IMG/VR virus record: IMGVR_UViG_2537562194_000013
Source of the DNA: a virus
Taxonomy: Duplodnaviria > Heunggongvirae > Uroviricota > Caudoviricetes
DNA length: 22,567 bases
Direction: 5' to 3' (one strand)
Both the position numbers and the translations under genes were made by a program. Positions 923-22,567 of this stretch are shown here, piece by piece (positions within the stretch are counted from its first letter, which is position 1; each line of letters begins with the position of its first letter). The notes under the pieces are model-generated. The model was not told the DNA's origin, searched no databases, and was given only the letters and a program-made list of their open reading frames with translations.

Positions 923-1129
923 TCATTCCGGCTTTTCGGGAAACGTTACTGGAAGGATGGAGGTATCCGTGGATTCGACTTTCTGCGCATAGAGAATCCA
1001 CTCGGTTAATTTTTGTTTACCCTGAACGGAAATAATGCCTAGCCGTAACTGTGAGTCCCAGAGCTGAGTTTTATCCCTGACGAGCTGTAGCAGGCTTTGC
1101 TTTTCTTTTTCCGCTTGTTGTCTTTGCAT
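923..1129 (-). CDS. Possible small protein (68 aa), hypothetical
   Basis: This is the C-terminal 68 codons of the 165-aa track ORF 923..1420, starting at ATG 1129 (MQRQQAEKEKQSLLQLVRDKTQLWDSQLRLGIISVQGKQKLTEWILYAQKVESTD...). The composition is protein-like, unlike the upstream 97 codons, which are antisense to lydA. There is no convincing ribosome-binding site, so this is a weak call. Confidence 0.2.
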   Translation of the reverse strand: MQRQQAEKEKQSLLQLVRDKTQLWDSQLRLGIISVQGKQKLTEWILYAQKVESTDTSILPVTFPEKPE

Positions 1130-1161
1130 GACCGGTTGAGAAGTTACTTTGCATACCATTA

Positions 1162-1181
1162 CCTCCTGACAACGTAGGAGG
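1162..1181 (+). promoter_or_regulatory. Inverted repeat CCTCCT-N8-AGGAGG that includes the lydA Shine-Dalgarno sequence; possible translational control element
   Basis: CCTCCT at 1162-1167 is the exact complement of the AGGAGG at 1176-1181, which sits 6 nt upstream of the lydA GTG start at 1188. Confidence 0.35.
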
Positions 1182-1187
1182 GAACTT

Positions 1188-1517
1188 GTGCTTGACACAC
1201 AGGAATTAGCTCCAGTTGCTATTGCGCTCCTGCTTTCAGTAATTGGTGGGATAGGCACGTTCCTGATGGATGTCCGAGACGGTCGCCAGTCTGGCAATTT
1301 GTTGGGATTGGTTACGGAGATCTTTGTTGCAGTGACAGCTGGTGCGGTGGCGTACCTATTGGGGCAACACGAGGGCTGGGAGTTATCAATTACGTACTTA
1401 ATGGTAACGATAGCCAGCAATAACGGTCATGAGGTGATTTCAGGGATGAAACGAGTGAATATCGATAGCATTCTGAATGTTCTTACAAGTTTGGTGAAAA
1501 AGGGAGGTGGGAAATGA
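1188..1517 (+). CDS. lydA: Holin LydA (P1 dar-operon lysis determinant A)
   Basis: 109 aa, GTG start preceded by AGGAGG. Three hydrophobic helices (LAPVAIALLLSVIGGIGTFLM, LLGLVTEIFVAVTAGAVAYLL, LSITYLMVTIAS) and a charged C-terminal tail, which is holin topology. It is the first gene of an operon whose order matches the P1 lydA-lydB-hdf-darA-ddrA-ddrB arrangement. Confidence 0.7.
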   Translation: MLDTQELAPVAIALLLSVIGGIGTFLMDVRDGRQSGNLLGLVTEIFVAVTAGAVAYLLGQHEGWELSITYLMVTIASNNGHEVISGMKRVNIDSILNVLTSLVKKGGGK

Positions 1518-1957
1518 TTGGCTGGGGTGTATGCGCTCTTGCGTTAGCCTTAGCCGATCGCTATTTGCTAAAACGCAAGGACATCACGCATTTAGAACTT
1601 GGTGATGTGGAAATTAAACCGGGTTTCATCCGGGTGCCGTTCAAATACCGGTCTAAATTCCCGTTTTTGCGCGGCGCAACGGTCAGATATTGGATCCGCG
1701 ATGTTCAGAAGCCAACGACAGTGATTGAAGGCGAACAACGTTGTCTGACGTCGGCTGAACAGGGCGAAAACAGTGAATGGTTGTACATACCCACTGAATA
1801 TATGGGTAAAGGAGAACGGCTGTGGCATTTCAACGTCATGGTTACGCATGGCGACTCGTTCATTAACCCGTTGTATCGGATTTTCCCTGTTACTCAGCAA
1901 ATCCGCAGAAGTTACGTAATAAATCTCGCACAGGATGTGTCAGATGACGAAAAATAA
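1514..1957 (+). CDS. lydB: LydB (holin antagonist in the P1 dar operon)
   Basis: 147 aa. The start ATG overlaps the lydA stop (ATGA at 1514-1517) and follows GGGAGG. It has an N-terminal hydrophobic segment. Identification is by position and size relative to lydA and darA. Confidence 0.6.
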   Translation: MIGWGVCALALALADRYLLKRKDITHLELGDVEIKPGFIRVPFKYRSKFPFLRGATVRYWIRDVQKPTTVIEGEQRCLTSAEQGENSEWLYIPTEYMGKGERLWHFNVMVTHGDSFINPLYRIFPVTQQIRRSYVINLAQDVSDDEK

Positions 1958-2546
1958 GTATGCAACGGTCGATTTTGACCAGGTTAATGAAAAGGGGCTG
2001 AAATCCCTTATCGCGGCGATCAATAAAACCGGTGTTACGGTAATTGAGGTTGACTCCAGCAACCGCGCAACAACGAAAGATGGCGTTAAAGTTAAAACCG
2101 CAAAGCTGGTTCTTAACGACGGACAAATTCTTGCCATACAGGTAAACGATACTGGCGATATATCGTCTGTGAGGCTGAATGGAAAAGCTATTCCTAACGC
2201 TCAGTCGCCGGATATCAAGACGCTTGGTACCGTCATGGGGCAAGCGGCCCGCAAAAACTCCGCAAAATTCCAGAAATCACTGATCGCCAAAGCGAAACGT
2301 GTTGCCAATCCGGTAGACAAGAAACCGGCAGTAAAATCCAACTTTCAGCGCCTGCAAGAGGCAAAACAGCGGAATGCTCAGGTGGTTGCCGCTTATAAAT
2401 CAGCGCAGAACTCGGTGTCTTTCAATCAACAGCAGATCACTGATTTGCGGGCGAAGCTGGATAAGGAGACAGGCCGACTCAATAACGAAAAGGCCCGAAA
2501 TGGCGAACTCAAACGCCGTCTTAAGCAACTGAAAGCAGGAAATTAA
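1944..2546 (+). CDS. hdf: Hdf (homolog of DarA fragment), with a coiled-coil C-terminus
   Basis: The ORF is open from 1935; I prefer ATG 1944 (MTKNKY...), which has AGGA 9 nt upstream and overlaps the lydB stop. The protein shares a block with the downstream DarA ORF (KNSAKFQ motif followed by a K/Q/E-rich coiled coil), and the underlying DNA is repeated at 2254-2274 and 3151-3171. Confidence 0.7.
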   Translation: MTKNKYATVDFDQVNEKGLKSLIAAINKTGVTVIEVDSSNRATTKDGVKVKTAKLVLNDGQILAIQVNDTGDISSVRLNGKAIPNAQSPDIKTLGTVMGQAARKNSAKFQKSLIAKAKRVANPVDKKPAVKSNFQRLQEAKQRNAQVVAAYKSAQNSVSFNQQQITDLRAKLDKETGRLNNEKARNGELKRRLKQLKAGN

Positions 2547-2547
2547 C

Positions 2548-4467
2548 ATGGAACAGTTCAATATCAATAAAGGGGTGGCGATCAAGCCTGGGCTTGACGT
2601 GCTTCCCCCGCCAGTGACTGATGATGAATATCGCGCATTAATGGCCGGTGAGGACCGCTATCTGATGACGGAATCCAACACCCTGGAGGAAATCGAGGCT
2701 ACGTTCTTCTATGACACGCCGATCCACTGGTGTGCTACGGATTTACTGGAGGCGATTAGTTCTACTCGTTTGCAGCTACACCGGACCATGCAGGCATTTG
2801 TCCGGGCATTGAACCAGAAGCTGAATGGTACCGGAATCTCTGCGGGGAGTGATAAAACGGGGGACGTGGCCCAGAACGGTGCACGCGCGATCGGCGGGGC
2901 TGAAATTGGCCGGGCGCGTAACGTTAACGGGCTGCCGGTTCTGCCAGCCATTATTCCGCTCAGTGATGGTCAGACTATCAGCATTCTGTTTCATAGCCCG
3001 ACAGCGGAAAACCGGATCACCAATAGCGATACGCTGATTGCTTTCCAGTTCTTACTGAATAAAAAAGACGTTACTCATACCGTTGCTCCGATGAGTGGAC
3101 GTGATATGACGCTGGCGCAGGTCACCATGAAACTTGCCAACCTTGCAGAGAAAAACTCGGCAAAATTCCAGCGTGCGCAGAAGAAGAAAAAAGCCCTGGT
3201 TGATGAAATAACCCAACTACAGGCTGACAGTGACCAGAAAGAGGATGCCATGAGCGACCTCGCGGATCAGGTGGCAGCGGTAGAAGGCCAGAAGGCAGAT
3301 CTGGAGCAGAAAATTAACGTGGTTGCTTCGGAAGCGGATTCTCTTTATCAAGAAAATGAGCGTTTGCAGGCGGAGATTGATCAGCTCAATCGCACTGGTG
3401 GGCGCGATACCATTGCTCCTGCGGGGATGACTGGTGGGCACTCTCGCGCGCTGACGGATCGCCTTGCCAGTATCAAAAATCGTATGCATATGGACGGGGA
3501 AGCGACGCTCAGTAATGGTGCATCAATGAAGCAATTCATTGGGGATGGCGAAGGGTATATCCAGTTAACCGATCCGGATGGCAGCGTATACATGATCAAG
3601 GCTAAATCCATACAGGGTGTGGACATGGCAGAAGCGATCGGCAAGCTGTTTAAAGCCTATAAAGCGGGTAATGTATCGGAATATCTGGTCCAACCAGAAG
3701 AACATAAACCGGAAAACGTCGAACCTGAACCAGCGGAGGATACCGGTAGCTCTTCGCCTGAACCAGAAGTCTCTGTAGGTGCATATCGATATGCCCTGCA
3801 AATGCGTCCGGCGGCCCCTGGCGCAATACCTGAAGGTAACAAAGCAATTCTGCCGCGCCCTGATGAAGGTGACCCGTATTATGAATATGCACGCTACGGC
3901 ATTGCTACTTACGATACCCCGCTTTCTGATCAGCAAATGAGTGAGTACGACCTGAAGTTATTGCCTCGCGAGGATTCTTTCGACTTCCTGGCGAAGACAC
4001 TTACTAATGGTCCGTTTGGCAAATATGCACAAAAAGCTCTGGAGCTGGCCACCAGCTCACCAGACGAGTTCCGCGTAATGCTGAAAACTCAGTTTCAAAA
4101 AACTTTCCCCAATATTGCGTATCCGGGGGGCGCTGGCACCGAGAAAATGGTGCAGAGCATGATCAATGCATTGCAGGCCGAAGTCGGTGAGATTACTCAG
4201 CCAGAACCGGCCCCGGCACAGCCTGATGAAACGGTTAGCGAAGCAGATGCAGAGGCTAATAAAGCCATTGAATATCTCAATAACGTGATGGATATGCAAA
4301 GCACTGACATGGCGGAGATCCGTAACGCCCGGGGCAATGTCCGGGAAGCGATTGCAGCCCTTCAGGCTGCCGGACGTTTTGAGGAAAACGAAGAGCTGGT
4401 TAACGGCGCAGCTCGCCACCTGGCTGATCTGCTGGTAGCAATCCAGAAAGCGGGGGTAGCGGCATGA
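2548..4467 (+). CDS. darA: DarA (defence-against-restriction protein A precursor; head internal protein)
   Basis: 639 aa. ATG at 2548 follows AGGAA and sits 1 nt after the hdf stop. Size and position match P1 DarA. It has a central coiled coil and an acidic Pro/Glu-rich segment (PEEHKPENVEPEPAEDTGSSSPEPE). Confidence 0.85.
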   Translation: MEQFNINKGVAIKPGLDVLPPPVTDDEYRALMAGEDRYLMTESNTLEEIEATFFYDTPIHWCATDLLEAISSTRLQLHRTMQAFVRALNQKLNGTGISAGSDKTGDVAQNGARAIGGAEIGRARNVNGLPVLPAIIPLSDGQTISILFHSPTAENRITNSDTLIAFQFLLNKKDVTHTVAPMSGRDMTLAQVTMKLANLAEKNSAKFQRAQKKKKALVDEITQLQADSDQKEDAMSDLADQVAAVEGQKADLEQKINVVASEADSLYQENERLQAEIDQLNRTGGRDTIAPAGMTGGHSRALTDRLASIKNRMHMDGEATLSNGASMKQFIGDGEGYIQLTDPDGSVYMIKAKSIQGVDMAEAIGKLFKAYKAGNVSEYLVQPEEHKPENVEPEPAEDTGSSSPEPEVSVGAYRYALQMRPAAPGAIPEGNKAILPRPDEGDPYYEYARYGIATYDTPLSDQQMSEYDLKLLPREDSFDFLAKTLTNGPFGKYAQKALELATSSPDEFRVMLKTQFQKTFPNIAYPGGAGTEKMVQSMINALQAEVGEITQPEPAPAQPDETVSEADAEANKAIEYLNNVMDMQSTDMAEIRNARGNVREAIAALQAAGRFEENEELVNGAARHLADLLVAIQKAGVAA

Positions 4468-4829
4468 CACTATCAGCTATTGAGTTAATGGATCTCAGCG
4501 ATAAGTTGGATGCTCTGATGTCCAAAGCGGCTACCGCGAGTGGTATGGAGTTGCTGGATATCAGCGATGAAATTGACCAGATCATGCAACAGATGGGGTA
4601 CGGCGCGTCTGGCGGCGGTAGTGGCGAGGAGAAACAACCTTCGGAACATGATGGTGTGCCAAAACTGGTTGCTGATTTCCTGGCTGATAAATTCGTCGAT
4701 CAGAGCACCGATGCATTTATCGGTACCTTGCAGGATTTGAGTCAATATGTTGGCACATACATCGACCTGGACCAGGTTAAACAGCACACGGCGGCATGGA
4801 TAGCCGCCAACATTGAAGAGGCAGCATAA
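4464..4829 (+). CDS. ddrA: DdrA (small dar-operon protein)
   Basis: 121 aa. The start overlaps the darA stop (ATGA at 4464-4467). Position and size match P1 ddrA. Confidence 0.75.
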   Translation: MTLSAIELMDLSDKLDALMSKAATASGMELLDISDEIDQIMQQMGYGASGGGSGEEKQPSEHDGVPKLVADFLADKFVDQSTDAFIGTLQDLSQYVGTYIDLDQVKQHTAAWIAANIEEAA

Positions 4830-4841
4830 GGCGTAACAGGG

Positions 4842-7829
4842 ATGAGCTTAAGCGATCAGGTGGTAATGGCCACCAGCATAGAAACGCTGATCGAGCTGCT
4901 AAAGAACCTGCCCGATTATGGGCGGGTTTCGTATGTGGTGACAGCGAAGGGAGACGAGGTAAAAACAGCGTTTGATATCGTCGATGCCTCAGCTCTTTTG
5001 GTATCCAATACTCTGGATGGGAAAATTAATCCAGACTATCCCCAGGAACTTCAGCCGCGCGACCGGACCCGCGCATCCAGCCTTCTTCAGGTCAACCAGA
5101 TATCCAAGGATTTGCGTCCTGCCCAGCTTACCGATTCCGGTTTATCCAGCCATGGCGCGCCAATAATTGGTGAGGACAATGCCGTTGAGTCAGGTAATGG
5201 GCGGACCATGGGGATCATTAAAGCCTATCAGGACGGTAATGCGGATCGGTATCGGGAGTACCTGATTGAACATGCGACCGAATTCGGCATACGGCCTGAA
5301 AAGGTTGAATCAATGACGGCTCCGGTACTGGTGCGCCGCCGGTTAACGACGGTTGACCGTGTTCAGTTTGCCAAGGACTCAAATATTTCTGATCTCCAGG
5401 AAATGGCAGCCAGTGAAAAGGCTTTTGTTGATGCCGACAGCATAACACCGGCGATGATGGCGCTTTTTAACCCGTCAGAAAGCGGAGATCTGCTTAGCCG
5501 CAGTAATGACGCGTTTATTCGCGGATTTATGACGCAAGTTGGTGCCACACAGGCGGCTGGCCTTGTAACTGAAGATGGGCGACCAACACGGCAACTTGTT
5601 GACCGTATACAAAACGCGATCTTTGCCAAGGCATATAAGGATGCGCGCCTGGTAAGGATGGTTGCAGAAGAACCTGATCCGGATATGCGTAATGTTCTGA
5701 CGGCGCTTAATGCGGCAGCCAATGATTTTGTCCAGATGCAGGCTTTATCAGGAGAAGCGCACAAGCAGGCTGTGACAACCATTGTTGATGGTATTGAAAC
5801 AGCGGATAGCCTCGATAAAAAGGCGCTGGCGGCATTGAAAGATGCGGTAGACCTGGTAAGGCAATCGAAGGAGTCAGGCCAACATATTACCGATGTTATT
5901 GCTCAGGGGGATATGTTCAGCGAAACGGCCCCGGAAGTGAAAGCACTCGCGTTGTTCATCGTCGCGAATAACCGTAGCGCGAAGCGTATGGCCACCGCCT
6001 TTAAGTTGATGGCGCAACGTATCAATGATGAGTTACAGCACCAGGGCCAGGCGCTGGGGGATATGTTTGGCGGCGGCGATGTGTCGTTACAGGATATCCT
6101 TCGCCAGGTGTCTCAGGAACTGGAAAACGAAGGCATGCAAGGGATATCCGGCGGTCTTTTCGAGTCCGTTTCCGGCGGTAGTTACAACGGTGTTGCTCCG
6201 TATACCAGTTTGCTATTACATCGGGCATCCGGCATCAAAGACATTATTCATCTGATCAGGCTGCTTTCCCGCACAGATCCCCAGGATGAACAGCTTGTAC
6301 AAGTGCTTGCGCATTTTGTTCGAATGCCTGTTGCCGACGTGAAAAAATGGTGCCGATTATTCGGTATCAGCAATTCGTTACTTCGCGGCTTGTTAAATCA
6401 CGCATCCTCCCTTGGGCGCGATGGCTTTGACGAGATAGCGCAGGCGATAAAAAACGGAGATATGCCACCAGCTATTGACTGGTTTTCCATTCGCCCAACC
6501 AGGGTGAAAGCATTCCTTAGCGCGGCGCATTCGGCATCACCATTGGCAGAAATGGTTCAGAGGTTATCGCTCATATTCACAGACCATACCGCGTTGGGTG
6601 ATCTGACTCTGGACGAGATGAAGGAAGCCTCCATTCAGTGGGCCGATCAACAAAATGAGGTTAACTCAGACTTCTTGCCAGCATTCAGGAAGGCCGTTAG
6701 TAAAGCGGATGATGCCCGTGGAATTCTGAAGGCATTTAAGGCATTGCAAAGTCGTGTTAATAAACATGTCGGTGATATCGATGGGGTAACGGAGGAAGGC
6801 CGGGATATCCTTAAAGATCACGGCATAACGCCAGAGTTTATTGATGAGATCAGGACTGATATGCAGCGTGAGGTCGTATCGTCCCTGCAAATCGTAGCCA
6901 GAGCGTTGGCGGATGCTAATCCGAAGAGTGCGGCCATTGTTAACCGGGTTATTGGTGATATAGAAGCATCGGAGGGCATGGGGGCGCTGAAACTCTTCCT
7001 TTCGCGAGCGTTTAATCCTAACGGCAATATTCTCCCTGGCATTATTGGTGAGGCTAAAAAGTATGTCAGTGAAGAAGAACTTGAGCAGCTTGACCAACTA
7101 CTTAAGCGATTCTCATATAACCCGCAGACACGCTGGCAAATGAATCAGCGAAGTATGGGTTCGGTCCACGAGAAAGTGTTATCTGCCATGAACAGTGCGA
7201 TCGCAAACTCATCCGTATCTGAAGAAAAAGCTCTTGAGTGGGCCGACTCTTTTATCACAGAAGAAGTGGAAGAAGCCCGCGCTGGACAGAATGGTGGGAT
7301 AGACCTGCGCAAGGAACTTGCTGATATTTATCGCCTGACCGGCGGGAAAATATCGACCTTATCAAAGGTAGTTCACCACCAGGGAAGGGCATATGCAAAT
7401 CTAAATGGTGTTGTTGCTGTCAATTTGAACGATAAAAATGCAAGTGCACTGTGGCACGAGCTGGGTCATCATCTTGAGTACAGTAACCCTGGTTTGTTAG
7501 AGAAAGCCCGGTCATTCCTGAAGGCCAATGTTGAAGGGGATAAGCCATCATTCGTCAATATCGGTGGGCGTGGCAAGCCTGAATGGTGCTTCAGATCTCG
7601 ATTGAGTAATATTTATATGGCGAAGGTATACCCGCCAGCCTCAGTAAGTAATTCCGGGAAAATTCGGCAGAAATCACCGACTATTTCCAAAACGTCAGCA
7701 ACGGAAGTATTCTCTATGGCTCTTCAGTTGTATCATGACAAAGAGGCCGCTGCCGCATCACTGATGAATGGTGACGGATTGCTGGAACTGTTATTAGGTG
7801 TGGCAAAGGAGCTAAATAATGCAGATTAA
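4842..7829 (+). CDS. ddrB: DdrB (large dar-operon protein)
   Basis: 995 aa uninterrupted ORF immediately downstream of ddrA. Size and position match P1 ddrB. No catalytic motif was recognised by eye. Confidence 0.85.
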   Translation: MSLSDQVVMATSIETLIELLKNLPDYGRVSYVVTAKGDEVKTAFDIVDASALLVSNTLDGKINPDYPQELQPRDRTRASSLLQVNQISKDLRPAQLTDSGLSSHGAPIIGEDNAVESGNGRTMGIIKAYQDGNADRYREYLIEHATEFGIRPEKVESMTAPVLVRRRLTTVDRVQFAKDSNISDLQEMAASEKAFVDADSITPAMMALFNPSESGDLLSRSNDAFIRGFMTQVGATQAAGLVTEDGRPTRQLVDRIQNAIFAKAYKDARLVRMVAEEPDPDMRNVLTALNAAANDFVQMQALSGEAHKQAVTTIVDGIETADSLDKKALAALKDAVDLVRQSKESGQHITDVIAQGDMFSETAPEVKALALFIVANNRSAKRMATAFKLMAQRINDELQHQGQALGDMFGGGDVSLQDILRQVSQELENEGMQGISGGLFESVSGGSYNGVAPYTSLLLHRASGIKDIIHLIRLLSRTDPQDEQLVQVLAHFVRMPVADVKKWCRLFGISNSLLRGLLNHASSLGRDGFDEIAQAIKNGDMPPAIDWFSIRPTRVKAFLSAAHSASPLAEMVQRLSLIFTDHTALGDLTLDEMKEASIQWADQQNEVNSDFLPAFRKAVSKADDARGILKAFKALQSRVNKHVGDIDGVTEEGRDILKDHGITPEFIDEIRTDMQREVVSSLQIVARALADANPKSAAIVNRVIGDIEASEGMGALKLFLSRAFNPNGNILPGIIGEAKKYVSEEELEQLDQLLKRFSYNPQTRWQMNQRSMGSVHEKVLSAMNSAIANSSVSEEKALEWADSFITEEVEEARAGQNGGIDLRKELADIYRLTGGKISTLSKVVHHQGRAYANLNGVVAVNLNDKNASALWHELGHHLEYSNPGLLEKARSFLKANVEGDKPSFVNIGGRGKPEWCFRSRLSNIYMAKVYPPASVSNSGKIRQKSPTISKTSATEVFSMALQLYHDKEAAAASLMNGDGLLELLLGVAKELNNAD

Positions 7830-8133
7830 AATCGCAGCGCCATTAGGCGGAGATGCCATTATCGAATTTGATGATAATGAAGAAGTTTCCGGGCGTTTAA
7901 GCATTATCTCCGGTGACATTACCGAGGACATGATCGCTGAAGCCATAGCTGGGGCAAATCCCAATAGCTATATGGGATTCGTTAACACCCTTGATGCTCC
8001 CGCAAGTGATGTTCTCCGAACGCTGCATCTTTACGCTGGCTGGTTTGTTGATTGGCCAGCAGTAGAGGGTGGCGATGAGGACGACGATGATGACGATGAT
8101 TTTGGGGATCATGTAGACCAGATCGTATATTGA
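7819..8133 (+). CDS. Small, very acidic protein with a poly-Asp C-terminal tract; last gene of the dar operon
   Basis: 104 aa. ATG 7819 has AAGGAG 7 nt upstream and overlaps the ddrB stop, so it is translationally coupled. It has about 25 Asp/Glu against 3 Lys/Arg and ends EGGDEDDDDDDDFGDHVDQIVY. A strong terminator follows directly. Confidence 0.7.
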   Translation: MQIKIAAPLGGDAIIEFDDNEEVSGRLSIISGDITEDMIAEAIAGANPNSYMGFVNTLDAPASDVLRTLHLYAGWFVDWPAVEGGDEDDDDDDDFGDHVDQIVY

Positions 8134-8137
8134 AGAA

Positions 8138-8164
8138 ATCCCGCCAATCGGCGGGATTTTTTTT
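8138..8164. terminator. Rho-independent terminator between the convergent dar operon and the ssb operon
   Basis: 8-bp GC-rich stem (ATCCCGCC / GGCGGGAT), 4-nt loop, then a run of 7 T. It follows the stop at 8133 on the plus strand and overlaps the stop of the minus-strand gene at 8163. Confidence 0.85.
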
Positions 8165-8951
8165 AATCGCTTTCCACTTCTTCCGTGGTGTTTTCTTGCA
8201 GTTCTGTTAATGCAGCACGACATAGGTTCCGGGCATTGGATATAGCCACACTTTTGACTTCATCCGTCATCGTGCAGGTAATGTACTGATCGAGTTCTTC
8301 AGCGCGGATGATGCTTTTGCCAATCAGAAACTGTATTTGCCAGAGCAGATCGGCATCCATAATCAGAATTTCTGCCGGGCCTTCAGGGCCAGCCGGGAAG
8401 GAAACATAAGACTGTTTGCCCAGGCCGATAACTCGACAACTTGCTTCAAGAATTGCGCGCTTGAGGTCTGACTTTGTAACTGAAACAGGTTGATTTTCAC
8501 CTGCGATTACGCCGTTGACATGGATGTGGAAGGGCATGTAGCTTGAAATTCGCTCTACTTTCCATACGCCAGCAAGCGATCCTTCATGCAGCACAATGGG
8601 GGTAACCGCGAGTTTCATCTCACCATATAACTGCTGGCAGATAACTGGATTACTGAATACATCCAGAGGTTCACACTCAAACAGCGGCGCAATCTGCATG
8701 AGGTCCATCATGGTCATACCAGGGGTACGAGCAGTAATGAATCTGCGCATTCCAGTATCCATTGTGCGCCAGATAGCTACACCATGCTTTTTGCTCACTT
8801 CTTCAGTAAAGCCAAGGTGGCACATGATGGTTTTTTCGATAGCCAGATCAGAGATCGAAACCTTTTCGCCAGGCACACCATCATTATTGATGGTCACTTC
8901 GACACTCTGACCATTACGCAGGCGGTATTGAATTGCTTTAGTATTTTCCAC
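8163..8951 (-). CDS. Hypothetical protein (262 aa), last gene of the ssb operon
   Basis: GTG start at 8951 with GGAG 9 nt upstream; it begins 6 nt after the upstream gene's stop. Acidic C-terminus (ELQENTTEEVESD). No recognisable motif. I am not aware of an intact counterpart in P1, which as I recall carries an IS1 insertion around this position. Confidence 0.65.
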   Translation of the reverse strand: MENTKAIQYRLRNGQSVEVTINNDGVPGEKVSISDLAIEKTIMCHLGFTEEVSKKHGVAIWRTMDTGMRRFITARTPGMTMMDLMQIAPLFECEPLDVFSNPVICQQLYGEMKLAVTPIVLHEGSLAGVWKVERISSYMPFHIHVNGVIAGENQPVSVTKSDLKRAILEASCRVIGLGKQSYVSFPAGPEGPAEILIMDADLLWQIQFLIGKSIIRAEELDQYITCTMTDEVKSVAISNARNLCRAALTELQENTTEEVESD

Positions 8952-8957
8952 GTTAAA

Positions 8958-9635
8958 TCACTCCACTACAAACCAGTCACATGCCAGTAAGTCGCCTACA
9001 GAAGGAACCCACGGAACAACTACACCTTGTGCATTTTTTAAGGCGAAATAAGCACCATACGGAACGAGGTCGCCGGGGAAATATCCCTTAATGGCTTCCA
9101 TTCGTGCCGGGTACTGTCCTTCAGGAACCAGCCAGCAGAATTGGTTTTCGCCGTTCCACCCGCGTCGGGCAACTTTCTTGCCATCCTTCAGCCACATCAG
9201 CGCGTCAGAAAAGTCGGCTGCTTCAAGGTCGATTTCTTCTTGTAGAGTAGCGATACCGCCAGCAGAAATAGTTACGTCCCTGGCTGTAATGAATGTCACC
9301 CCATTGTGACCTTCAATGCTGAGCGATACCCCATTTTCGAAGAAGTCGTTAGTCCGACTAAAGCCTTCTTCAAATGTTTTTTCTGGTGAATAGGACAGAG
9401 ATCCGTCCTCATAAGCGACCAGATATCCGCCAATTTCTGGTCGGTGTTTTTGCAAAAATATTTTATCAACATGGACTTTTACCCCTTCTGGCTCAACGAC
9501 TTCGATGTTGCAAAAAAGGACCACATCCATTAGGGCGATAATTTCGATATCTTTGATTTTTGAGGCGCGAACTGTTTTATGGCTTTTGTATTTTGGAAGT
9601 GCCGTCAAAAGCTCTTTCGTTGTCATGTTATTCAT
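8958..9635 (-). CDS. Two-domain protein with a C-terminal DUF2829 (Tad2-like) domain
   Basis: I prefer ATG 9635 (MNNMTTKELL...), which has an AGAGGA ribosome-binding site, over the track start at 9803. The C-terminal ~80 aa (FSDALMWLKDGKKVARRGWNGENQFCWL...VVVPWVPSVGDLLACDWFVVE) fits the DUF2829 signature as I recall it: ALK-GKK-RR-GWNG, then PW-PS--DLLA-DW. The N-terminal ~140 aa is unrecognised. Confidence 0.7.
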   Translation of the reverse strand: MNNMTTKELLTALPKYKSHKTVRASKIKDIEIIALMDVVLFCNIEVVEPEGVKVHVDKIFLQKHRPEIGGYLVAYEDGSLSYSPEKTFEEGFSRTNDFFENGVSLSIEGHNGVTFITARDVTISAGGIATLQEEIDLEAADFSDALMWLKDGKKVARRGWNGENQFCWLVPEGQYPARMEAIKGYFPGDLVPYGAYFALKNAQGVVVPWVPSVGDLLACDWFVVE

Positions 9636-10357: not shown

Positions 10358-10490
10358 AATGTATATCTTTGAAACGTAGCTAACAAGTGATTTGCATTAT
10401 CCTGTGCCTTCTAAAGGGATCGAGTCAGTCGGTATTGGCTGTGAATGGGTGTTTGTCCTGGAGCGTAAAAAATTCGCTTATGAGGTCTTT

Positions 10491-11339: not shown

Positions 11340-14136
<2,797 letters not shown>

Positions 14137-17100
14137 ATGAACAAGCTATCTATGGGGGTGTTTCGCTGTTCAAGTGTCAGCGAAATATTAAAATACATTA
14201 GGGCAATAACATCTCACCAAGCGCCGATTAAATATGGCGTGGAAAAGGTGGAAGGCAAAAGCTATGACCGACTGCGCCGGGAGGCGAATCAGAAGGCGAT
14301 AGATTTGCTTAATTCGCTGGTGGACGGCGCGACACTGACAGATGAACAGCGCCAGATCCTGGCTGGGTACACCGGTGAAGGCGGCATTGGCGGGTCCGTC
14401 TCCGAATATTACACACCAAAGCCGATCGCTGAAGGTGTCTGGGAGATCATGAAGCTCTACGGCGCGGACGTAGGTAACACTCTGGAACCATCGGCGGGAA
14501 CCGGCGTTTTTAATGAGACAAAACCGGTTGGTACGGTGATGACCGCGACTGAGATCAGCAGTGTTTCCGGTCGTATAAACCAGTTGTTACACCCGGAAGA
14601 CAGCGTACAGATTTCCCCGTTCGAACAGCTGGCTATAAGCACGCCTAACGATTCATTCGACCATGTTGTGGGTAACGTTCCGTTCGGCGGTCGTGATAAC
14701 ACACGCAACATCGATAAGCCTTACGCAGAAGAAACGGACATGGGTTCTTACTTCATGCTCCGCATGCTGGACAAGATAAAGCCAGGCGGATTCATGTGCG
14801 TGATTGTGCCGCCGTCCATTGTTTCAGGTTCAAACATGAAGCGGTTACGCCTGCGCCTATCACGGAAAGCTGAATTTCTTGGTGCCCACCGCTTGCCTAC
14901 CGGTACTTTTGACGCAAACGGGACCAGTACAGTCGTTGATGTGGTGCTGATGCGCAAACATCCGGCAGAGATGGCTGAGAAAATCCCCCTGGTGGATGAA
15001 AGCACTCTTGAATCGGCAAATGTGCTTTGGCCAACGTTTATTTCTGGCAAGTGGTTTGAAAAGGATGGCCGCCGGTTTGTTCATGGCACCCAGGAAAAGG
15101 GCTTCCAGGGGCGTATTGAGGTTCGTGCCGACGGTCAGATTGATAACCAGGCTCTTAAAGCGAAGCTGATTCATCGTTTCGAAAGCCGTATCGACTGGTC
15201 TTTGCTCGATATGGCTGAACCGTCACTGACCGCAGACGTTGTTGGTGAAGGGGAAATGCGCCTGATTAATGGCGTATGGCAAAAATATGCTGGTGGTCGC
15301 TGGATTGAAGCTGATGCCGGGAAGGAACTTAAAATTGATGCTGCCAGTTATGGCGCGGATAGCTGGGAGGCTCTTCAGCGTAACCTGACTACAACAGAAG
15401 GCCGTCTCGGTATGACATTTACCCAGATGGCAAATGTCCGCGATAAGTACACCACATCAATCAGCGACGATATGGTGCAGCTGGTGGACTGGATTAACAG
15501 CCAGCCTGAAAAATACCGTGAACGCTTGTATCGTGGGGCGATGATTGGCCGGATGTTAATTGAATATCAGGATATGAAGGCCGCCGGGCATAGTGCTGAA
15601 CAAATCGAACAGCAGCGCCTTTCTCTGGTATCCCGTTTGCAGGCAGAGATTGACCGTTTTGGTAACCCTGGTCGCGGTCCGATAGCTAAATTATCGGGAA
15701 GCGGTGCGCGCGCCTGGTTTGCTTTCCGTGGTGCAATTAAGCTGGATGGCACTATTTCTGACGAGCTGACAGGAAAGCTGGTTACGCATGATTCCAGCGC
15801 CAGTTATGACTCCACCAGCTATCAGGACACCCTGCGTTATCTCTATAGCGATCTTACCCGCGATCCAATCCAGCTCGATGATTTCCGCCTTGCGTTTACC
15901 GGCGAATTGCCAGCCAGTGATGAAGAGTTGCTTAATTTATTGGCCAGCACTCCTGGTATTGCGGTTTCACCGTATGGCGGGATTGTTCCGTTCGCCCGCG
16001 CCACCAGCGGCGACATTAACGAGATAGTGGCTCCAAAACAGGAATTCCTCGCCACGCTCCCCGACGGTCCAGTAAAGAACAACGTCCTTAATCAGCTGGC
16101 AGCGATCGAAGAGAAGCGCATCAAGACGCCAGCAGAGAATATCCGGTTTAAGCTCAATAGCCGTTGGTTCGACCGTTCCGTCATTCTGGAGTTTTTGCAG
16201 GAAAACGGCTATCCGGATCTGCGCTATGTGCAGTCAGTGCAGCTGGAAGGCGACGAAATGGTTTCTGACACCTATCACGGTGGTGATGGCCTGTTCGTCG
16301 GGCACCGATACGGTGTCGTCCAGCGCAAGGATAAAGAAACAGGCGAGATCCGCTACGAGTGGGACCGTAAATCAGGTGAAAACGCGACCGGGTTCCCGGC
16401 ACAGCTGGAAAAGTATCTCAATGGTGCGCGTATCGGTGGCAAAGATAGCGCGACGGCGAACGGCTACCGCGAGCAGATGGCACTGCTTGAGGACCAGTTC
16501 AATAAGTGGATCAAGACGCACGATCGCTACGATGAACTGGTTGCCAAATACAACGATGTGTTCAATAGCAATATCCCGTATGAACACTCTGGCGATCCGC
16601 TTGGGTTGAAGGGATTAAGCGGTAAGCGCCAGCCATTTGATTACCAGAATAGCGAAGTGCGCCGACTGTCCGAAGATGGGCGCGGCATCCTGGGCTTCGG
16701 CACCGGGCTGGGTAAAACTACGACCGCGCTGGCGCTTGAGGCGTTCAACTATGAGAACGGTCGCTCCACCCGTACTGCGTATGTAGTGCCTAAATCAGTG
16801 CTGGAAAACTGGTATTACGAAGCAAAAGAATTCCTGAGTGAAGAGGCATTCAGTAACTACCTGTTCGTCGGTCTTGATGTGCTGATGGATGGCGATCAGA
16901 TTCGCCAGGTGCCGGTGCTCGATGAGAACGGTAAACCTGTTCTTGGTACTGATGGCACTCCAGTTATGCGCGATGCCCTAAAACTGGCAGATGAAGCCAC
17001 TATCACGGCGCGGATGAACGCGATCCCGCACTCAAATTACCGTGCAGTCGTGTTTACCAAAGAACAATACGCCCGCATTCCGCTACGTGATGACACCGTA

Positions 17101-20100
17101 GATGAGCATGCACAGGATATGCTTTATGACTTCGTTGCCGCCGGGCGCGTAGCCAGCGCAATGGACTCCGACTCCCACCGCAAAGAGGCCGCGCGTCGCC
17201 GGGTATTGTCGGAGTATTCAGATACCGGCACCGAAAAAGCAGAGAAGTATCCGTACTTTGAGGATATGGGCTTCGATAGTGTGATCGCTGACGAAGGTCA
17301 CAACTACCGCAATAGCTATAAAAATGGTCGCGAAGCGTCACAACTGGCCTATCTGCCCACCAGCGCGGTGGCGCAATCGGCGCGGGATATGGCAATTAAA
17401 AACGCGTACCTGATGAAAAAGAATGGTGGGCGCGGACCGGTTCTCCTGACTGCAACGCCAGTCGTTAACACCCCGATCGATGCATACAACATGCTTTCTC
17501 ATGTGCTGCCGAAGGAATACTGGCAGAAGATGGGGATCTACGGTCCTGATGACTTCGTTAAATTCTTCGGCAAGACCAGGCTGGAAACGGTACAGAAAAT
17601 CAGCGGTGAAGTTGAAGAAAAAATGGCGCTGGTGGGCTTTGAAAACCTTGATGCGCTGCGCGGCATATTCCATCGCTGGACAACGCTTAAAACGGCGGAA
17701 GACGTTAAGGATACCGTGGAGATCCCGGAACTGGACGAACACCAGCAGGATGCACCACTTACGGAAGAACAACTGGCGGCGTATGAAGAATTGCGTCAGC
17801 AGGCGGAAGCGGCAGCCAAAGCCAACAATGGCGTAACGACCTCGGTCAATGAAGACGGCGTGATTGAGCACGAGAAAGCCCGTCCGATCTTCTCAATAAT
17901 CAGGGATATGGACCGCGTATGTACTGACATGGACCTGTACTATCGCAGGATCACCTATCGTTTCCTGCCGGAGTACGCCGATGCGGTGCAGCAGCTGGCG
18001 GACAGTTTGCCTAAACAAGCCACCAGCGAAGACGACGACAGTGATGATTCGATCACGCAGCAATCGCAATACTCCCTGATAGATAAGGGCGAGTTTATTC
18101 AGTTGCAGGTACCGGAAGCATTTGAGCAGGAAGTGAATAAGCGCCTGGCCAAGTTTGGCATTGACGAACAGACCGTAACTCACCCCGTTACGCCCAAATA
18201 CGCGAAGCTGATTGCCACGCTGAAGGAGTTTTTCCCGGAAGGTAAGCAAATCATCTTCACCGATGAAAAAACGCAACACCAGAAGCTCAAGCGCATTATC
18301 TGCAATGCTCTTAACCTTGAACCTTCAAAGGTGGGGATCCTGAATGCTCAGACGGTTGCCGAGGCAGGTAAAACCGGTAAGAAACTGAAAGCGGTTAAAC
18401 CGCCGAAAGAGCTACCGGATGAACCAACAGATGCACAGATAGCGAAATACAACGAGCAAATGGCTCTGTATGACGCCTATATCGCGCAGCAAAATGAAAT
18501 GTCGCTGGGTGGGCTGGAAAAGATTGCTGCCGACTTCCAGGAGGGCCGGACTCCGATCATCATCTGCAACAAAAAGGCAGAGGTGGGTATCAACCTGCAT
18601 CGAGGAACGACGGATATCCACCACCTGACGTTGCCGTGGACACCAGCCAGTATCGCACAACGTAACGGTCGCGGTGCACGAGTTGGCTCCAACCGTGCAA
18701 GCGTTCGCGTTCACTACTACTGCGGCAAGGGGTCTTTCGATGAATACCGACTGAAGACGCTGAAGCGTAAAGCAGGCTGGATCTCCGATATCCTCCGTTC
18801 AGATAAGTCAGAAATGGAGAACGCCGACGCCAATGACATGATCGAAATGCAGATGTATACCGCGAAGGATGACGGCGAACGTCTGGTAATGATGCAGGTT
18901 CAAATGGATAAGGCGAAAGCTGCGAAACGCGCTCGCCAGAAAGAACAGGCTACTATCGACCTTCAGAACTACATCAAGGCGCAGCACGCAGCTGGTGAGG
19001 ATGTGGAGGTACTTACCGCTGAATTGGAGCGAAGCAAAGCGGAACTTGAAAAGACCACCGCCGAGGTAGCTAAATTCAAACAGGCGGTAATGGCCAAAGC
19101 AGCTGATAACGCAGACTGGAAAGCCCGCTGGGGTAGCGTCCATCACACAGACCGTACGTTGTTAGCACAGTATCGCGCGTCGTTGAAAAGCGCCATTCAG
19201 CGCAAGGCTAATATCTCTCAAGCCATCTCCCGCTATGAGAAATTATTGAACCGTACTCAGAAGGCCGCGACGGATATCAAACGCCTGCGCCCGCTGGTGG
19301 AGGATGCAATAAATAAAGGCATTCTGGATGTTGATCCTGACCTGGTTAACCATGCGAGTGAGTTCCTTGTTATCGGCGATCGCTCATGGCGTGTAGGCCA
19401 ATACTACGATTGTGCCGGTGATATCGTTCGCATTAAGTCGCTGGACTTCGACAGCCAGCGCGCAGACGTGGAGATTATCTTTACCTTCAAAGGTACCAAA
19501 TCGGGTAACTGGGATGTGAAGACGCTGGATAAACAGGTTGATGTAACTCCCGATGAAGATGCTGTTATGCAGAAAATCAGTGGTGGCGTCTCCATCGCCG
19601 GGATTAACGACATCATTTCCTGTGACGATTTCTACCGTTTCCAGCAGCGCGGCATGATCAAAATCACTGACTCATACGGCGTTCAGACTACAGAGTCAGG
19701 CTATAGCATCGATTTTGTTGGTACCTATACGGACCCACTGAAGCATGCGGTTTACCCGGATCGCCGTGACGGCGCGCTGAAGTCGTCAATTGCAAAATGG
19801 GTGCTTGGTATGATGTCGGAAGGGAATAACCGCCAGATCCGTTCGGCAGAAACATTCCTGGTTGAACTGTTTGGCTCCAATTATGGCGATGTAATCGCGT
19901 CATACGGAGATACGCTATCCCCTGAAGCAATTCAGGAGAAAATAGCGGATGCGATCGCCAGAATGCCGGAAAAAACAAGCCAGGGGGCTACTCGTAACGG
20001 GGATTCTGAACTTGAAGTCACCAATGCCATTTTCGGTACCAATGAGTTCCGGGCGTCAGATTATGAGATCACCACAGCACAGTTTGGCACCATTGGCATT

Positions 20101-20904
20101 TACAGCAATAAAGACGAGATCAAACAGTCAATGGACGCTGCAAGCGCGCGCATTGCAGCAGAACGCAAAGCCAATCTGAATCATGCAGTTTCCGCGCTGA
20201 CTCAATCGTGGGTAACAGCAATCAGGGAGGCCGCCACCACAGGAAAAATCACACCGGCAATTGCGGATGTCGTAAACGACGGCTCTAAATTTATGGATGC
20301 CTATAAAATGGATGCGGTGCAGTTGCCATCAGCCTATGGTCAACTCAGCTATCGCATGACCTACAACCTGGTATCAATGTTTTCCGACCTTGCCATCCTT
20401 GGGCTGGTGGATCTTAACGAGGTTACGCCGGAATTGCTCAGCATGCGCAAGAATCATGTGGAGATATTGCAGAGAATTAACACGGTTCTTGCCGGGCGCA
20501 CCGATGAAGAGAAACAGGCCGACGCTGATCGGATAAACCTGGCCCTTGGCAACATCACGGAGGAAGAGATTGCCGCCAGAAACGAGAAACAAGAAGAGTT
20601 ATCATCAATACAGGGTGATGCCACCAGCATAGCTCAGTCTCTTGGTCTGAATTATCGCGTATCCACCGCCGACCTGAAGATGATGTACGCACCAAAATTC
20701 GCCGCTGGCGAGGTATTTGGGCTTCAGGAAGCCTCAGGCATGAAAGGCGTTCTTTTCCGTGCGAAAGACGCAATCAAGGCGAAATTCGGCGCTCGCTGGC
20801 TGCCAGCGAAGGCGAAGAACAGCGATTTCCCGGGTAACTGGTGGATTATCGAGACAAAACACAACGTGGCGGACGTTCTGGCCGTCATCCAACAATACGC
20901 ATAA
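14137..20904 (+). CDS. darB: DarB: N6-adenine methyltransferase / DExH helicase fusion antirestriction protein
   Basis: 2255-aa ORF, which matches my recollection of P1 DarB length. It contains a methyltransferase AdoMet motif I (LEPSAGTGVF), an amino-methyltransferase motif IV (NVPF), helicase Walker A (GFGTGLGKTTTA), a DEGH box, and motif VI (QRNGRGARVG). Confidence 0.95.
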   Translation: MNKLSMGVFRCSSVSEILKYIRAITSHQAPIKYGVEKVEGKSYDRLRREANQKAIDLLNSLVDGATLTDEQRQILAGYTGEGGIGGSVSEYYTPKPIAEGVWEIMKLYGADVGNTLEPSAGTGVFNETKPVGTVMTATEISSVSGRINQLLHPEDSVQISPFEQLAISTPNDSFDHVVGNVPFGGRDNTRNIDKPYAEETDMGSYFMLRMLDKIKPGGFMCVIVPPSIVSGSNMKRLRLRLSRKAEFLGAHRLPTGTFDANGTSTVVDVVLMRKHPAEMAEKIPLVDESTLESANVLWPTFISGKWFEKDGRRFVHGTQEKGFQGRIEVRADGQIDNQALKAKLIHRFESRIDWSLLDMAEPSLTADVVGEGEMRLINGVWQKYAGGRWIEADAGKELKIDAASYGADSWEALQRNLTTTEGRLGMTFTQMANVRDKYTTSISDDMVQLVDWINSQPEKYRERLYRGAMIGRMLIEYQDMKAAGHSAEQIEQQRLSLVSRLQAEIDRFGNPGRGPIAKLSGSGARAWFAFRGAIKLDGTISDELTGKLVTHDSSASYDSTSYQDTLRYLYSDLTRDPIQLDDFRLAFTGELPASDEELLNLLASTPGIAVSPYGGIVPFARATSGDINEIVAPKQEFLATLPDGPVKNNVLNQLAAIEEKRIKTPAENIRFKLNSRWFDRSVILEFLQENGYPDLRYVQSVQLEGDEMVSDTYHGGDGLFVGHRYGVVQRKDKETGEIRYEWDRKSGENATGFPAQLEKYLNGARIGGKDSATANGYREQMALLEDQFNKWIKTHDRYDELVAKYNDVFNSNIPYEHSGDPLGLKGLSGKRQPFDYQNSEVRRLSEDGRGILGFGTGLGKTTTALALEAFNYENGRSTRTAYVVPKSVLENWYYEAKEFLSEEAFSNYLFVGLDVLMDGDQIRQVPVLDENGKPVLGTDGTPVMRDALKLADEATITARMNAIPHSNYRAVVFTKEQYARIPLRDDTVDEHAQDMLYDFVAAGRVASAMDSDSHRKEAARRRVLSEYSDTGTEKAEKYPYFEDMGFDSVIADEGHNYRNSYKNGREASQLAYLPTSAVAQSARDMAIKNAYLMKKNGGRGPVLLTATPVVNTPIDAYNMLSHVLPKEYWQKMGIYGPDDFVKFFGKTRLETVQKISGEVEEKMALVGFENLDALRGIFHRWTTLKTAEDVKDTVEIPELDEHQQDAPLTEEQLAAYEELRQQAEAAAKANNGVTTSVNEDGVIEHEKARPIFSIIRDMDRVCTDMDLYYRRITYRFLPEYADAVQQLADSLPKQATSEDDDSDDSITQQSQYSLIDKGEFIQLQVPEAFEQEVNKRLAKFGIDEQTVTHPVTPKYAKLIATLKEFFPEGKQIIFTDEKTQHQKLKRIICNALNLEPSKVGILNAQTVAEAGKTGKKLKAVKPPKELPDEPTDAQIAKYNEQMALYDAYIAQQNEMSLGGLEKIAADFQEGRTPIIICNKKAEVGINLHRGTTDIHHLTLPWTPASIAQRNGRGARVGSNRASVRVHYYCGKGSFDEYRLKTLKRKAGWISDILRSDKSEMENADANDMIEMQMYTAKDDGERLVMMQVQMDKAKAAKRARQKEQATIDLQNYIKAQHAAGEDVEVLTAELERSKAELEKTTAEVAKFKQAVMAKAADNADWKARWGSVHHTDRTLLAQYRASLKSAIQRKANISQAISRYEKLLNRTQKAATDIKRLRPLVEDAINKGILDVDPDLVNHASEFLVIGDRSWRVGQYYDCAGDIVRIKSLDFDSQRADVEIIFTFKGTKSGNWDVKTLDKQVDVTPDEDAVMQKISGGVSIAGINDIISCDDFYRFQQRGMIKITDSYGVQTTESGYSIDFVGTYTDPLKHAVYPDRRDGALKSSIAKWVLGMMSEGNNRQIRSAETFLVELFGSNYGDVIASYGDTLSPEAIQEKIADAIARMPEKTSQGATRNGDSELEVTNAIFGTNEFRASDYEITTAQFGTIGIYSNKDEIKQSMDAASARIAAERKANLNHAVSALTQSWVTAIREAATTGKITPAIADVVNDGSKFMDAYKMDAVQLPSAYGQLSYRMTYNLVSMFSDLAILGLVDLNEVTPELLSMRKNHVEILQRINTVLAGRTDEEKQADADRINLALGNITEEEIAARNEKQEELSSIQGDATSIAQSLGLNYRVSTADLKMMYAPKFAAGEVFGLQEASGMKGVLFRAKDAIKAKFGARWLPAKAKNSDFPGNWWIIETKHNVADVLAVIQQYA
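14374..15036 (+). other. DarB methyltransferase domain (approximate boundaries)
   Basis: Motif I EPSAGTG is at nt 14482-14505 and motif IV NVPF at nt 14674-14685. Domain limits are estimated by eye. Confidence 0.6.
16669..18696 (+). other. DarB superfamily-2 helicase core (approximate boundaries)
   Basis: Walker A GLGKTT is near nt 16700-16720, DEGH at 17290-17301, and motif VI QRNGRGAR at 18658-18681. Confidence 0.6.
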
Positions 20905-20937: not shown

Positions 20938-21378
20938 ATGGCCACACTATCTGATACAATAAAACCGAATAAAACATATCTTGAGGCGGTACTCCGTACA
21001 GCGTTGTTAGGAAAGACAGAAGACGAATACGTTGATTTCTTCCTGTCAGGGCTACGCGGGCGATTACTGAAAAATCCCCGCCTGTACCGCAGCTATGGCC
21101 CATACTGGCCGGAAATTAAAAAATTATTACTGGAGCGCGGTTATGGTAATTTCGGTCGTCTCGTTGACCGTGACGTTCGCAAAATTTACCGTTATGACCG
21201 CCCGGCGCTGACGCTCATAGCTGCGACGCTCTACAGCCAGGAGCGTTTTGATAATGGTCAGATATACTCAGCCTGGCATTTACTGCCAGTGCCTGAAGAG
21301 GTTGACGACCAGGACTATGAGTTTGAGTCTTACGATTTGGAAGTTGAAGCCTTGGCACAGGCTGGAGAGAAAACTTGA
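20938..21378 (+). CDS. ulx: Ulx-like protein (darB-associated)
   Basis: 146 aa, immediately downstream of darB and upstream of the 82-aa ORF, as in the P1 darB-ulx-lxc order. The name is assigned by synteny and size only. Confidence 0.5.
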   Translation: MATLSDTIKPNKTYLEAVLRTALLGKTEDEYVDFFLSGLRGRLLKNPRLYRSYGPYWPEIKKLLLERGYGNFGRLVDRDVRKIYRYDRPALTLIAATLYSQERFDNGQIYSAWHLLPVPEEVDDQDYEFESYDLEVEALAQAGEKT

Positions 21379-21623: not shown

Positions 21624-21638
21624 ACTTCCCGCCATTTT

Positions 21639-21656
21639 GCCCGGCATCAACCGGGC
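21639..21656. terminator. Hairpin GCCCGG-CATCAA-CCGGGC between convergent genes
   Basis: 6-bp GC stem with a 6-nt loop, followed by ATTCTTCC on the plus strand. The T-tract is weak. Confidence 0.35.
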
Positions 21657-21665
21657 ATTCTTCCA

Positions 21666-22535: not shown

Positions 22536-22567
22536 TCTGTGTGCCTCCTTGCGTGCTTCGGCTGCGA

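Follow-up and report, generated by a model that had tools for sequence, protein, structure and literature searches.

Seven tightly joined open reading frames lie on the plus strand between positions 1188 and 8133 of the window, the whole 22,567-nucleotide stretch of viral DNA analysed here. The question that this locus raises is whether they form a complete and intact copy of the darA operon of phage P1 and, if so, what such an operon would do for the element that carries it. The Dar system has been under study since 1987, and a recent in-situ structure exists. On the evidence set out below, we are all but sure that positions 1141–8167 are a darA late operon, complete and intact, and that it belongs to a P1-like (Punavirus) phage-plasmid, of which positions 1–22177 are identical to a plasmid from Escherichia coli, p95JB1A. 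The P1 reference records were AF234172.1 and NC_005856.1, and functional roles were drawn from four sources (PMC12810830; PMC9024508; PMC5512222; 10.1101/2025.09.12.675607).

Gene content and relationship to P1

The open reading frame list gives products of 109, 147, 203, 639, 121, 995 and 104 aa, and none of the seven genes contains a frameshift or an internal stop. Together with the promoter and terminator that bound them, they are as follows.

1141–1159, plus strand: late promoter LPdar, with the same sequence as LPdar in the annotation of P1 AF234172
1188–1517, plus strand: lydA, holin, 109 aa; GTG start; 100% amino acid identity to P1 LydA
1514–1957, plus strand: lydB, LydA antagonist, 147 aa; ATGA overlap with lydA; 98.0% amino acid identity to P1 LydB
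1935–2546, plus strand: hdf, head protein with a DarA_N domain, 203 aa; 98.5% identity to P1 Hdf
2548–4467, plus strand: darA, internal head protein and antirestriction component, 639 aa; 98.0% identity to P1 DarA
4464–4829, plus strand: ddrA, acidic Dar component, 121 aa; 97.5% identity to P1 DdrA
4842–7829, plus strand: ddrB, 995 aa; 98.5% identity to P1 DdrB
7819–8133, plus strand: hxr, final gene of the operon, 104 aa; 95.2% identity to P1 Hxr
8132–8167, no strand assigned: two-way intrinsic-terminator hairpin between the convergent hxr and isaA genes, AAATCCCGCC-AATC-GGCGGGATTT, followed by a run of T residues

The order on this one strand is thus lydA-lydB-hdf-darA-ddrA-ddrB-hxr, with coupled junctions throughout, matching P1 in order and lengths. 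The lydA gene is preceded by a ribosome-binding site, AGGAGGG, at 1176–1182, and overlaps lydB by 4 nt; lydB overlaps hdf by 23 nt, or by 14 nt if an alternative hdf start (ATG at 1944, giving 200 aa) is used. The darA and ddrA genes overlap by 4 nt and ddrB and hxr by 11 nt, while gaps of 1 nt and 12 nt separate hdf from darA and ddrA from ddrB, respectively. The likeness to the P1 darA operon extends to the kinds of junction, LPdar and domain content, and the encoded proteins are 95–100% identical. At the DNA level, positions 1128–8131 align with P1 at 98.07% identity over 7004 columns with a single indel, and every protein has its P1 length except Hxr, which is longer by 2 aa; the idea that the pattern of reading frames resembles P1 by chance, without homology, is refuted by this alignment and by the full-length protein matches.

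An earlier note on this DNA had recognized a P1-type darA operon from its gene order, sizes and coupled junctions, and the open reading frame list and junction measurements bear this out. The comparison it proposed with P1 LydA, LydB, Hdf, DarA, DdrA and DdrB returned 97.5–100% identity over the full length of each protein, and its description of a known system is apt for what is a near-exact copy of a well-studied operon. The extent that it gave, 1188–8133, does take in all six genes it named, but the seventh gene in that range, hxr, had been left unnamed, and LPdar lies just upstream of where the operon was said to start.

Family matches agree with these assignments. LydA matches Pfam PF16083 and the holin family phrog_1527, LydB matches Pfam PF16084 LydB (4.6e-103) and DdrA matches the DdrA-like phrog_1855 (1.9e-57). 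Hdf contains a Pfam DarA_N domain (1.5e-21) and matches chain 9ukm_H of the P1 cryo-EM structure over its full length; DarA contains both DarA_N and DarA_C, matches PDB 9ukm_I over its full length and scores 1096.6 bits against the NCBIfam equivalog NF052326, for which the cut-off is 350. The N-terminus of DdrB is a DdrB-type ParB domain (Pfam PF18763, ddrB-ParB, 1.3e-39), and its C-terminal part carries the zincin motif HELGH (HExxH) at residues 872–876, a combination of ParB and zincin described previously for DdrB (PMC5512222). An antisense open reading frame annotated inside P1 ddrB, iddB, has its counterpart at 5363–5782 on the minus strand, where it differs at both ends (139 aa versus 132 aa in P1); no sign of its being protein-coding was seen here.

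Distribution of the operon

The window is 100% identical over positions 1–22177, both flanks of the operon included, to plasmid p95JB1A of E. coli 95JB1 (NZ_CP021336.1), which differs from it only within 22178–22525, in a KilAC antirepressor gene; the RefSeq annotation of this plasmid leaves the Dar proteins unnamed. The operon is carried by 496 PLSDB plasmids, and the Dar-Ddr system has been reported in every P1/D6 phage-plasmid (2025 survey; 10.1101/2025.09.12.675607). A diverged P1-like phage, Cronobacter phage JK004 (MZ188976.1), also has these seven genes, arranged in this order and with junctions that overlap or abut; after them come, as in the window, ssb, lyz, pro, prt, darB, ulx and lxc. 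All of these JK004 genes are annotated as hypothetical, and its operon proteins have only 44–79% amino acid identity to those of the window, Hxr being the most diverged (44%); the zincin motif of DdrB is kept, as HEVGH.

Promoter, terminator and flanking DNA

LPdar was established by alignment to P1 and is an exact pattern match, with a −22 box, AAGTTACTT, at 1141–1149 and a −10 element, TACCAT, at 1154–1159. The hairpin after hxr was established by folding: it has a predicted energy of −21.4 kcal/mol (z = −5.46), and none of 200 shuffled sequences folded as well. A generic promoter and terminator scan of the window listed neither feature; for LPdar this miss was to be expected, because the promoter lacks a sigma-70 −35 box.

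Both flanks of the operon differ from P1. Upstream of the −22 box, homology to P1 reaches back only 13 nt, to 1128; where P1 has lydC and cin, the window has a remnant of the tail-fibre-assembly gene U′ and AT-rich DNA. Given the lack of lydC and cin and the start of homology so close to the promoter, this different DNA may exert an upstream influence on expression of the operon. Phage vB_EcoM-Ro157c2YLVW (NC_050153.1) has the same upstream layout of acetyltransferase, U′ remnant and holin, at ~98% identity. Downstream, hxr and isaA are separated in P1 by isaB and IS1 but in the window only by the terminator hairpin, a stretch with no counterpart in the alignment to P1.

A gene that is absent from P1 adjoins the operon at 8958–9635 on the minus strand. 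Its product contains a Tad2-like/DUF2829 domain (Pfam PF11195, 2.5e-22), and its C-terminal 89 aa match solved Tad2 structures (9eib_A, 6.2e-20; 8v3e_E, 8.1e-20), so that by its domain content it is a candidate Tad2 (Thoeris anti-defence 2) gene.

Predicted role of the Dar proteins

In P1, the Dar proteins packaged in the capsid are Hdf, DarA, DdrA, DdrB, DarB and Ulx (PMC12810830; PMC9024508). Packaging and protection had been attributed in the earlier note to the products of the operon as a whole; in P1 this is right for Hdf, DarA, DdrA and DdrB, but LydA and LydB are a holin and its antiholin and do not belong to the packaged Dar proteins (PMC12810830; PMC9024508). The same note held that darB, elsewhere in the window, completes the Dar system, and darB is indeed present, but ulx is needed as well and is also found. 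These two genes and that of the protease thought to act on DarA are located as follows.

11340–12359, minus strand: pro, prohead protease, with DarA as its presumed substrate; 99.7% amino acid identity to P1 Pro, with the P1 length
14137–20904, plus strand: darB, Dar component, 2255 aa; 99.1% amino acid identity to P1 DarB, equal in length and without internal stops
20938–21378, plus strand: ulx, Dar component, 146 aa; 100% amino acid identity to P1 Ulx, with the P1 length

Carrying over what has been described for P1, we infer that the operon would be transcribed late in lytic growth from LPdar, a −22-box late promoter dependent on the phage late activator; the genes for this activator, Lpa, and for the capsid protein are outside the 22.6-kb window. 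LydA and its antagonist LydB would set the timing of lysis. Hdf and DarA would be the first to enter the procapsid, and the N-terminus of DarA would be removed, probably by Pro, a cleavage that has been put forward as a proposal (cited in PMC12810830). Cryo-EM of P1 places 55 DarA-Hdf pairs at penton-hexon junctions on the inner face of the capsid, touching the DNA (PMC12810830). Later packaging of DdrA, DdrB and DarB, as well as Ulx, would require Hdf and DarA, and Ulx is listed as aiding the localization of DarB (table in PMC9024508). Ejected with the DNA, the Dar proteins would then protect it in cis against type I restriction, with DarA and DdrA guarding against EcoA-type enzymes and DarB, together with DdrB and Ulx, against EcoB and EcoK, and Hdf and DarA would probably also affect head-size determination.

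Like Dar, T4 IPI, T7 Ocr and the plasmid proteins ArdA and ArdC oppose host restriction as DNA enters the cell, and IPI is likewise packaged in the head and injected (PMC5512222). These proteins bind the substrate of restriction enzymes or mimic it, whereas Dar is a multi-protein set that is bound to the inside of the capsid and has the transferred DNA as its target (PMC5512222); there is no sequence relationship between Dar and any of them.

Alternative readings

An operon may look intact and yet be silent, and it could be argued that the window derives from a cryptic plasmid prophage that has ceased to produce virions and has no use for Dar; the element is, after all, known only as the plasmid record p95JB1A, most of whose proteins in this region are called hypothetical by PGAP, lydA being labelled a phage holin family protein. 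Such a relic is highly improbable given the state of the genes themselves. Neither the seven operon genes nor darB, ulx, pro, prt, lyz and ssb contain frameshifts or stops, the promoter is identical to that of P1 and Dar is reported to be universal among P1/D6 phage-plasmids. Relative to P1, moreover, the operon has 89 synonymous and 41 non-synonymous changes, a pN/pS (dN/dS) of ~0.14 that indicates purifying selection, and per-gene dN/dS values of the neighbouring structural and Dar genes are 0.00–0.09.

A different emphasis would make hdf and darA mainly structural here, acting in head-size determination and capsid stability, with antirestriction secondary. Their listing as head-size determinants in P1 (PMC9024508) and the binding of DarA-Hdf pairs to the capsid at penton-hexon junctions speak for this, but both roles are described in the same papers, so that a structural role is compatible with the main explanation, and CRISPRi in P1 found these genes to be non-essential for plaque formation. 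We regard a mainly structural function as possible but rather unlikely, and favour the reading of the locus as an intact, P1-type antirestriction operon, which no feature of the sequence contradicts.

The final gene, hxr

Hxr would be co-transcribed with the rest of the operon and has no known role. It is very acidic, with 25 D/E against 3 K/R residues and a net charge of about −22, and differs from P1 Hxr by a 2-aa insertion, two extra Asp residues within a poly-Asp run. Searches for a helix-turn-helix or any other family gave no Pfam or NCBIfam match at E≤0.01, and comparison with PDB sequences gave none at E≤10; the sole PHROGs match was to phrog_2292, a family of unknown function. Only 14 homologues were found among 5.8 billion proteins, all without Pfam domains, and those with a named source are from E. 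coli. An AF2 model (pLDDT 63.8, pTM 0.54) predicts the order strand-strand-strand-helix-helix-strand, and Foldseek found no match to it in the PDB below E=1.

The P1 annotation of Hxr as an Xre-type helix-turn-helix repressor thus finds no helix-turn-helix to match it, although a model of such modest confidence is not decisive; the net charge, too, is unlike that of a DNA-binding protein. One could go further and propose that the label of Xre-like repressor, given when the P1 genome was annotated, is wrong for Hxr. It would instead be a small, extremely acidic protein, restricted to this lineage and ending in a poly-Asp tail, whose role, when co-expressed with Dar, is that of a further anti-defence factor, for example a DNA mimic, or of a factor in assembly or charge shielding. 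We consider this full proposal improbable.

Significance

The darA operon described here is already known and ordinary, and carries little weight as a discovery. Its value lies in annotation: it identifies the element as a P1-like phage-plasmid and allows the proteins that are still hypothetical in the RefSeq entry for p95JB1A, the identical plasmid, to be named. The operon further marks out the conserved backbone, against which two variable slots become visible, one upstream of LPdar and the other between hxr and ssb, the latter occupied by the Tad2-like gene in the window and by IS1 in P1.

Identity of the operon

A blastn comparison of window positions 1128–8131 with phage P1 gave 98.07% identity with a single indel; the matching stretch is annotated in the P1 record (AF234172) as LPdar, lydA, lydB, hdf, darA, ddrA, ddrB and hxr. 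A megablast search of 50,697 phage records likewise matched P1 and its relatives to the region at about 98%. The mechanical ORF list places seven ORFs on the same strand within 1188–8133.

Promoter elements and genes of the operon, with identity to P1 (amino acid identity for the gene products)
1141–1149, +, LPdar −22 box AAGTTACTT, identical
1154–1159, +, LPdar −10 TACCAT, identical
1176–1182, +, ribosome-binding site AGGAGGG, ahead of the lydA GTG start
1188–1517, +, lydA, 109 aa, GTG start, 100%
1514–1957, +, lydB, 147 aa, 98.0%
1935–2546, +, hdf, 203 aa (200 aa from a second ATG at 1944, as annotated in some records), 98.5%
2548–4467, +, darA, 639 aa, 98.0%
4464–4829, +, ddrA, 121 aa, 97.5%
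4842–7829, +, ddrB, 995 aa, 98.5%
7819–8133, +, hxr, 104 aa, 95.2%, acidic run with two extra Asp

The junctions are tight: at four of them the genes overlap, by 4, 23 (or 14), 4 and 11 nt, and the other two leave only 1 and 12 nt between genes. The earlier note had described a complete P1-type darA operon of six genes, lydA to ddrB, whose sizes agree with the ORF list; its gene list holds for these six but left hxr, the seventh ORF within the range, unnamed. The P1-type designation is borne out by protein identities of 95.2–100% and by matching family models. Comparison with the P1 proteins revealed no internal stops in the operon genes, and the 89 synonymous and 41 non-synonymous differences correspond to a pN/pS of 0.14, so that, judged from these substitutions, the genes are under purifying selection.

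Pfam matches comprised Phage_holin_3_3, LydB (4.6e-103), DarA_C and ddrB-ParB, along with DarA_N in Hdf as well as in DarA, and the operon proteins also matched the corresponding PHROGs families. With the NCBIfam equivalog model ‘antirestriction phage head protein DarA’ (cut-off 350 bits), DarA scored 1096.6 bits, and both DarA and Hdf matched, along their full length, chains of the cryo-EM entries 9ukm and 9vz0 for the P1 virion. The C-terminal zincin motif described for P1 DdrB (PMC5512222) is retained as HELGH at residues 872–876. An antisense ORF inside ddrB (5363–5782, minus strand) is the counterpart of P1 ‘iddB’, differing at both ends (139 aa versus 132 aa), and nothing suggests that it is a real gene.

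Promoters and terminator

The late promoter LPdar is identical to that of P1 and sits at 1141–1159, upstream of position 1188, where the operon had been said to start. Matches to the P1 late-promoter pattern with up to two mismatches numbered four in the window, against 1.1 expected; those elsewhere include the following.

10385–10403, +, −22 box and −10 before lyz, identical to P1 LPlyz
14104–14122, −, −22 box and −10 ahead of prt-pro, pattern match

After the hxr stop, positions 8132–8167 fold into a strong hairpin with an accompanying T run (−21.4 kcal/mol, z = −5.46; none of 200 shuffles folded equally well). Positioned between the convergent hxr and isaA genes, it is, on structural grounds alone, probably a two-way transcription terminator.

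The remainder of the Dar system

All six Dar proteins (Hdf, DarA, DdrA, DdrB, DarB and Ulx) are intact in the window, two being encoded outside the operon.

14137–20904, darB, 2255 aa, 99.1% identical to P1
20938–21378, ulx, 146 aa, 100% identical to P1

The claim that the operon and darB make up the whole Dar system is thus correct as to completeness, but ulx is also required. Also present is Pro (99.7% identical to P1), a prohead protease for which trimming of DarA has been proposed (PMC12810830). The further statement that the operon's proteins are packaged has to be narrowed, as LydA and LydB are lysis proteins.

By analogy with P1 (PMC12810830; PMC9024508), late transcription would start from LPdar, and the holin LydA and its antagonist LydB would set when lysis occurs. 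Hdf and DarA would enter the procapsid early; cryo-EM of P1 has located 55 DarA–Hdf pairs at penton–hexon junctions on the inner capsid surface, touching the DNA, and the mature particle lacks DarA residues 1–69 (PMC12810830). For their packaging, DdrA, DdrB, DarB and Ulx would depend on Hdf and DarA, and the Dar proteins would accompany the DNA out of the head and shield it from type I restriction, with DarA and DdrA acting against the EcoA type and DarB, DdrB and Ulx countering EcoB and EcoK.

Hxr

The P1 annotation (AF234172) describes Hxr as a possible repressor and Xre homologue, a label that our results do not support. Hxr had no match in Pfam, NCBIfam or PDB sequences, and no HTH was found. 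Its composition is strongly acidic (25 acidic versus 3 basic residues, pI about 4, poly-Asp tail). Among 5.8 billion proteins only 14 homologues were detected, all close P1-like proteins, the named ones from E. coli, and none carried a Pfam domain. The AF2 model, of modest confidence (pLDDT 63.8), has the order strand-strand-strand-helix-helix-strand, in contrast to an all-helical HTH, and Foldseek returned nothing from the PDB at E < 1. The gene is the fastest-diverging of the operon (44% identity in Cronobacter phage JK004) and is non-essential in P1.

Flanking regions

Homology to P1 begins at 1128, 13 nt before the LPdar −22 box. Upstream, P1 carries lydC and the cin invertase gene, whereas the window lacks both; phage vB_EcoM-Ro157c2YLVW (NC_050153.1) and the E. 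coli plasmid p95JB1A (NZ_CP021336.1) share the window's layout, with tail-fibre genes in fixed orientation. The DNA upstream of LPdar includes an AT-rich stretch (about 33% GC), and a hairpin lies at about 901–920.

Flanking genes
1 to about 345, −, beginning of a serine O-acetyltransferase-like gene that continues past the window edge
923–1159, −, truncated remnant of a Mu-type U′ tail-fibre-assembly gene, 68–78 aa, overlapping LPdar
8163–8951, −, isaA, product 94% identical to P1 IsaA
8958–9635, −, Tad2-like/DUF2829 gene, about 680 bp (mechanical ORF to 9803), between isaA and ssb
21666–22535, −, KilAC-domain antirepressor gene, incomplete at the window end, replacing the P1 sequence beyond lxc

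Downstream, isaA and hxr converge on the single strong hairpin; isaB and IS1, which lie between hxr and isaA in P1, are both absent, and the junction appears to represent the form that lacks the IS1 insertion. Positions 8948–9631 have no P1 match, a gene-sized indel, and P1 lacks the Tad2-like gene. The C-terminal 89 residues of its product match the Tad2 anti-Thoeris structures 9eib_A (6.2e-20) and 8v3e_E (8.1e-20), and the product also matches AcrIIA7. This gene is already known in P1-like phage-plasmids: a 2025 preprint survey found Tad2 in 56% of them and the Dar-Ddr system in all (10.1101/2025.09.12.675607).

Origin and distribution

Positions 1–22177 are 100% identical to p95JB1A, a plasmid of E. 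coli 95JB1, and all 88 differences fall at 22178–22525, inside the KilAC antirepressor gene. A second KilAC copy on the plasmid (30221–31154) matches window 21634–22567 at 99.6%, which suggests recombination between the two copies. RefSeq/PGAP labels LydB, Hdf, DarA, DdrA, DdrB and Hxr of p95JB1A (2188–9133), and also Ulx, ‘hypothetical protein’, which reflects a gap in annotation rather than a biological finding.

The operon occurs in 496 PLSDB plasmids, with at least 80% of it in 439, and the diverged phage JK004 (MZ188976.1) has the same seven genes, order and kinds of junction at 44–79% amino acid identity. The observation made in the earlier note is confirmed and its interpretation supported with minor corrections. 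The darA operon described here belongs to a system that is already known and is nearly identical to the textbook P1 example, and its interest is accordingly low.
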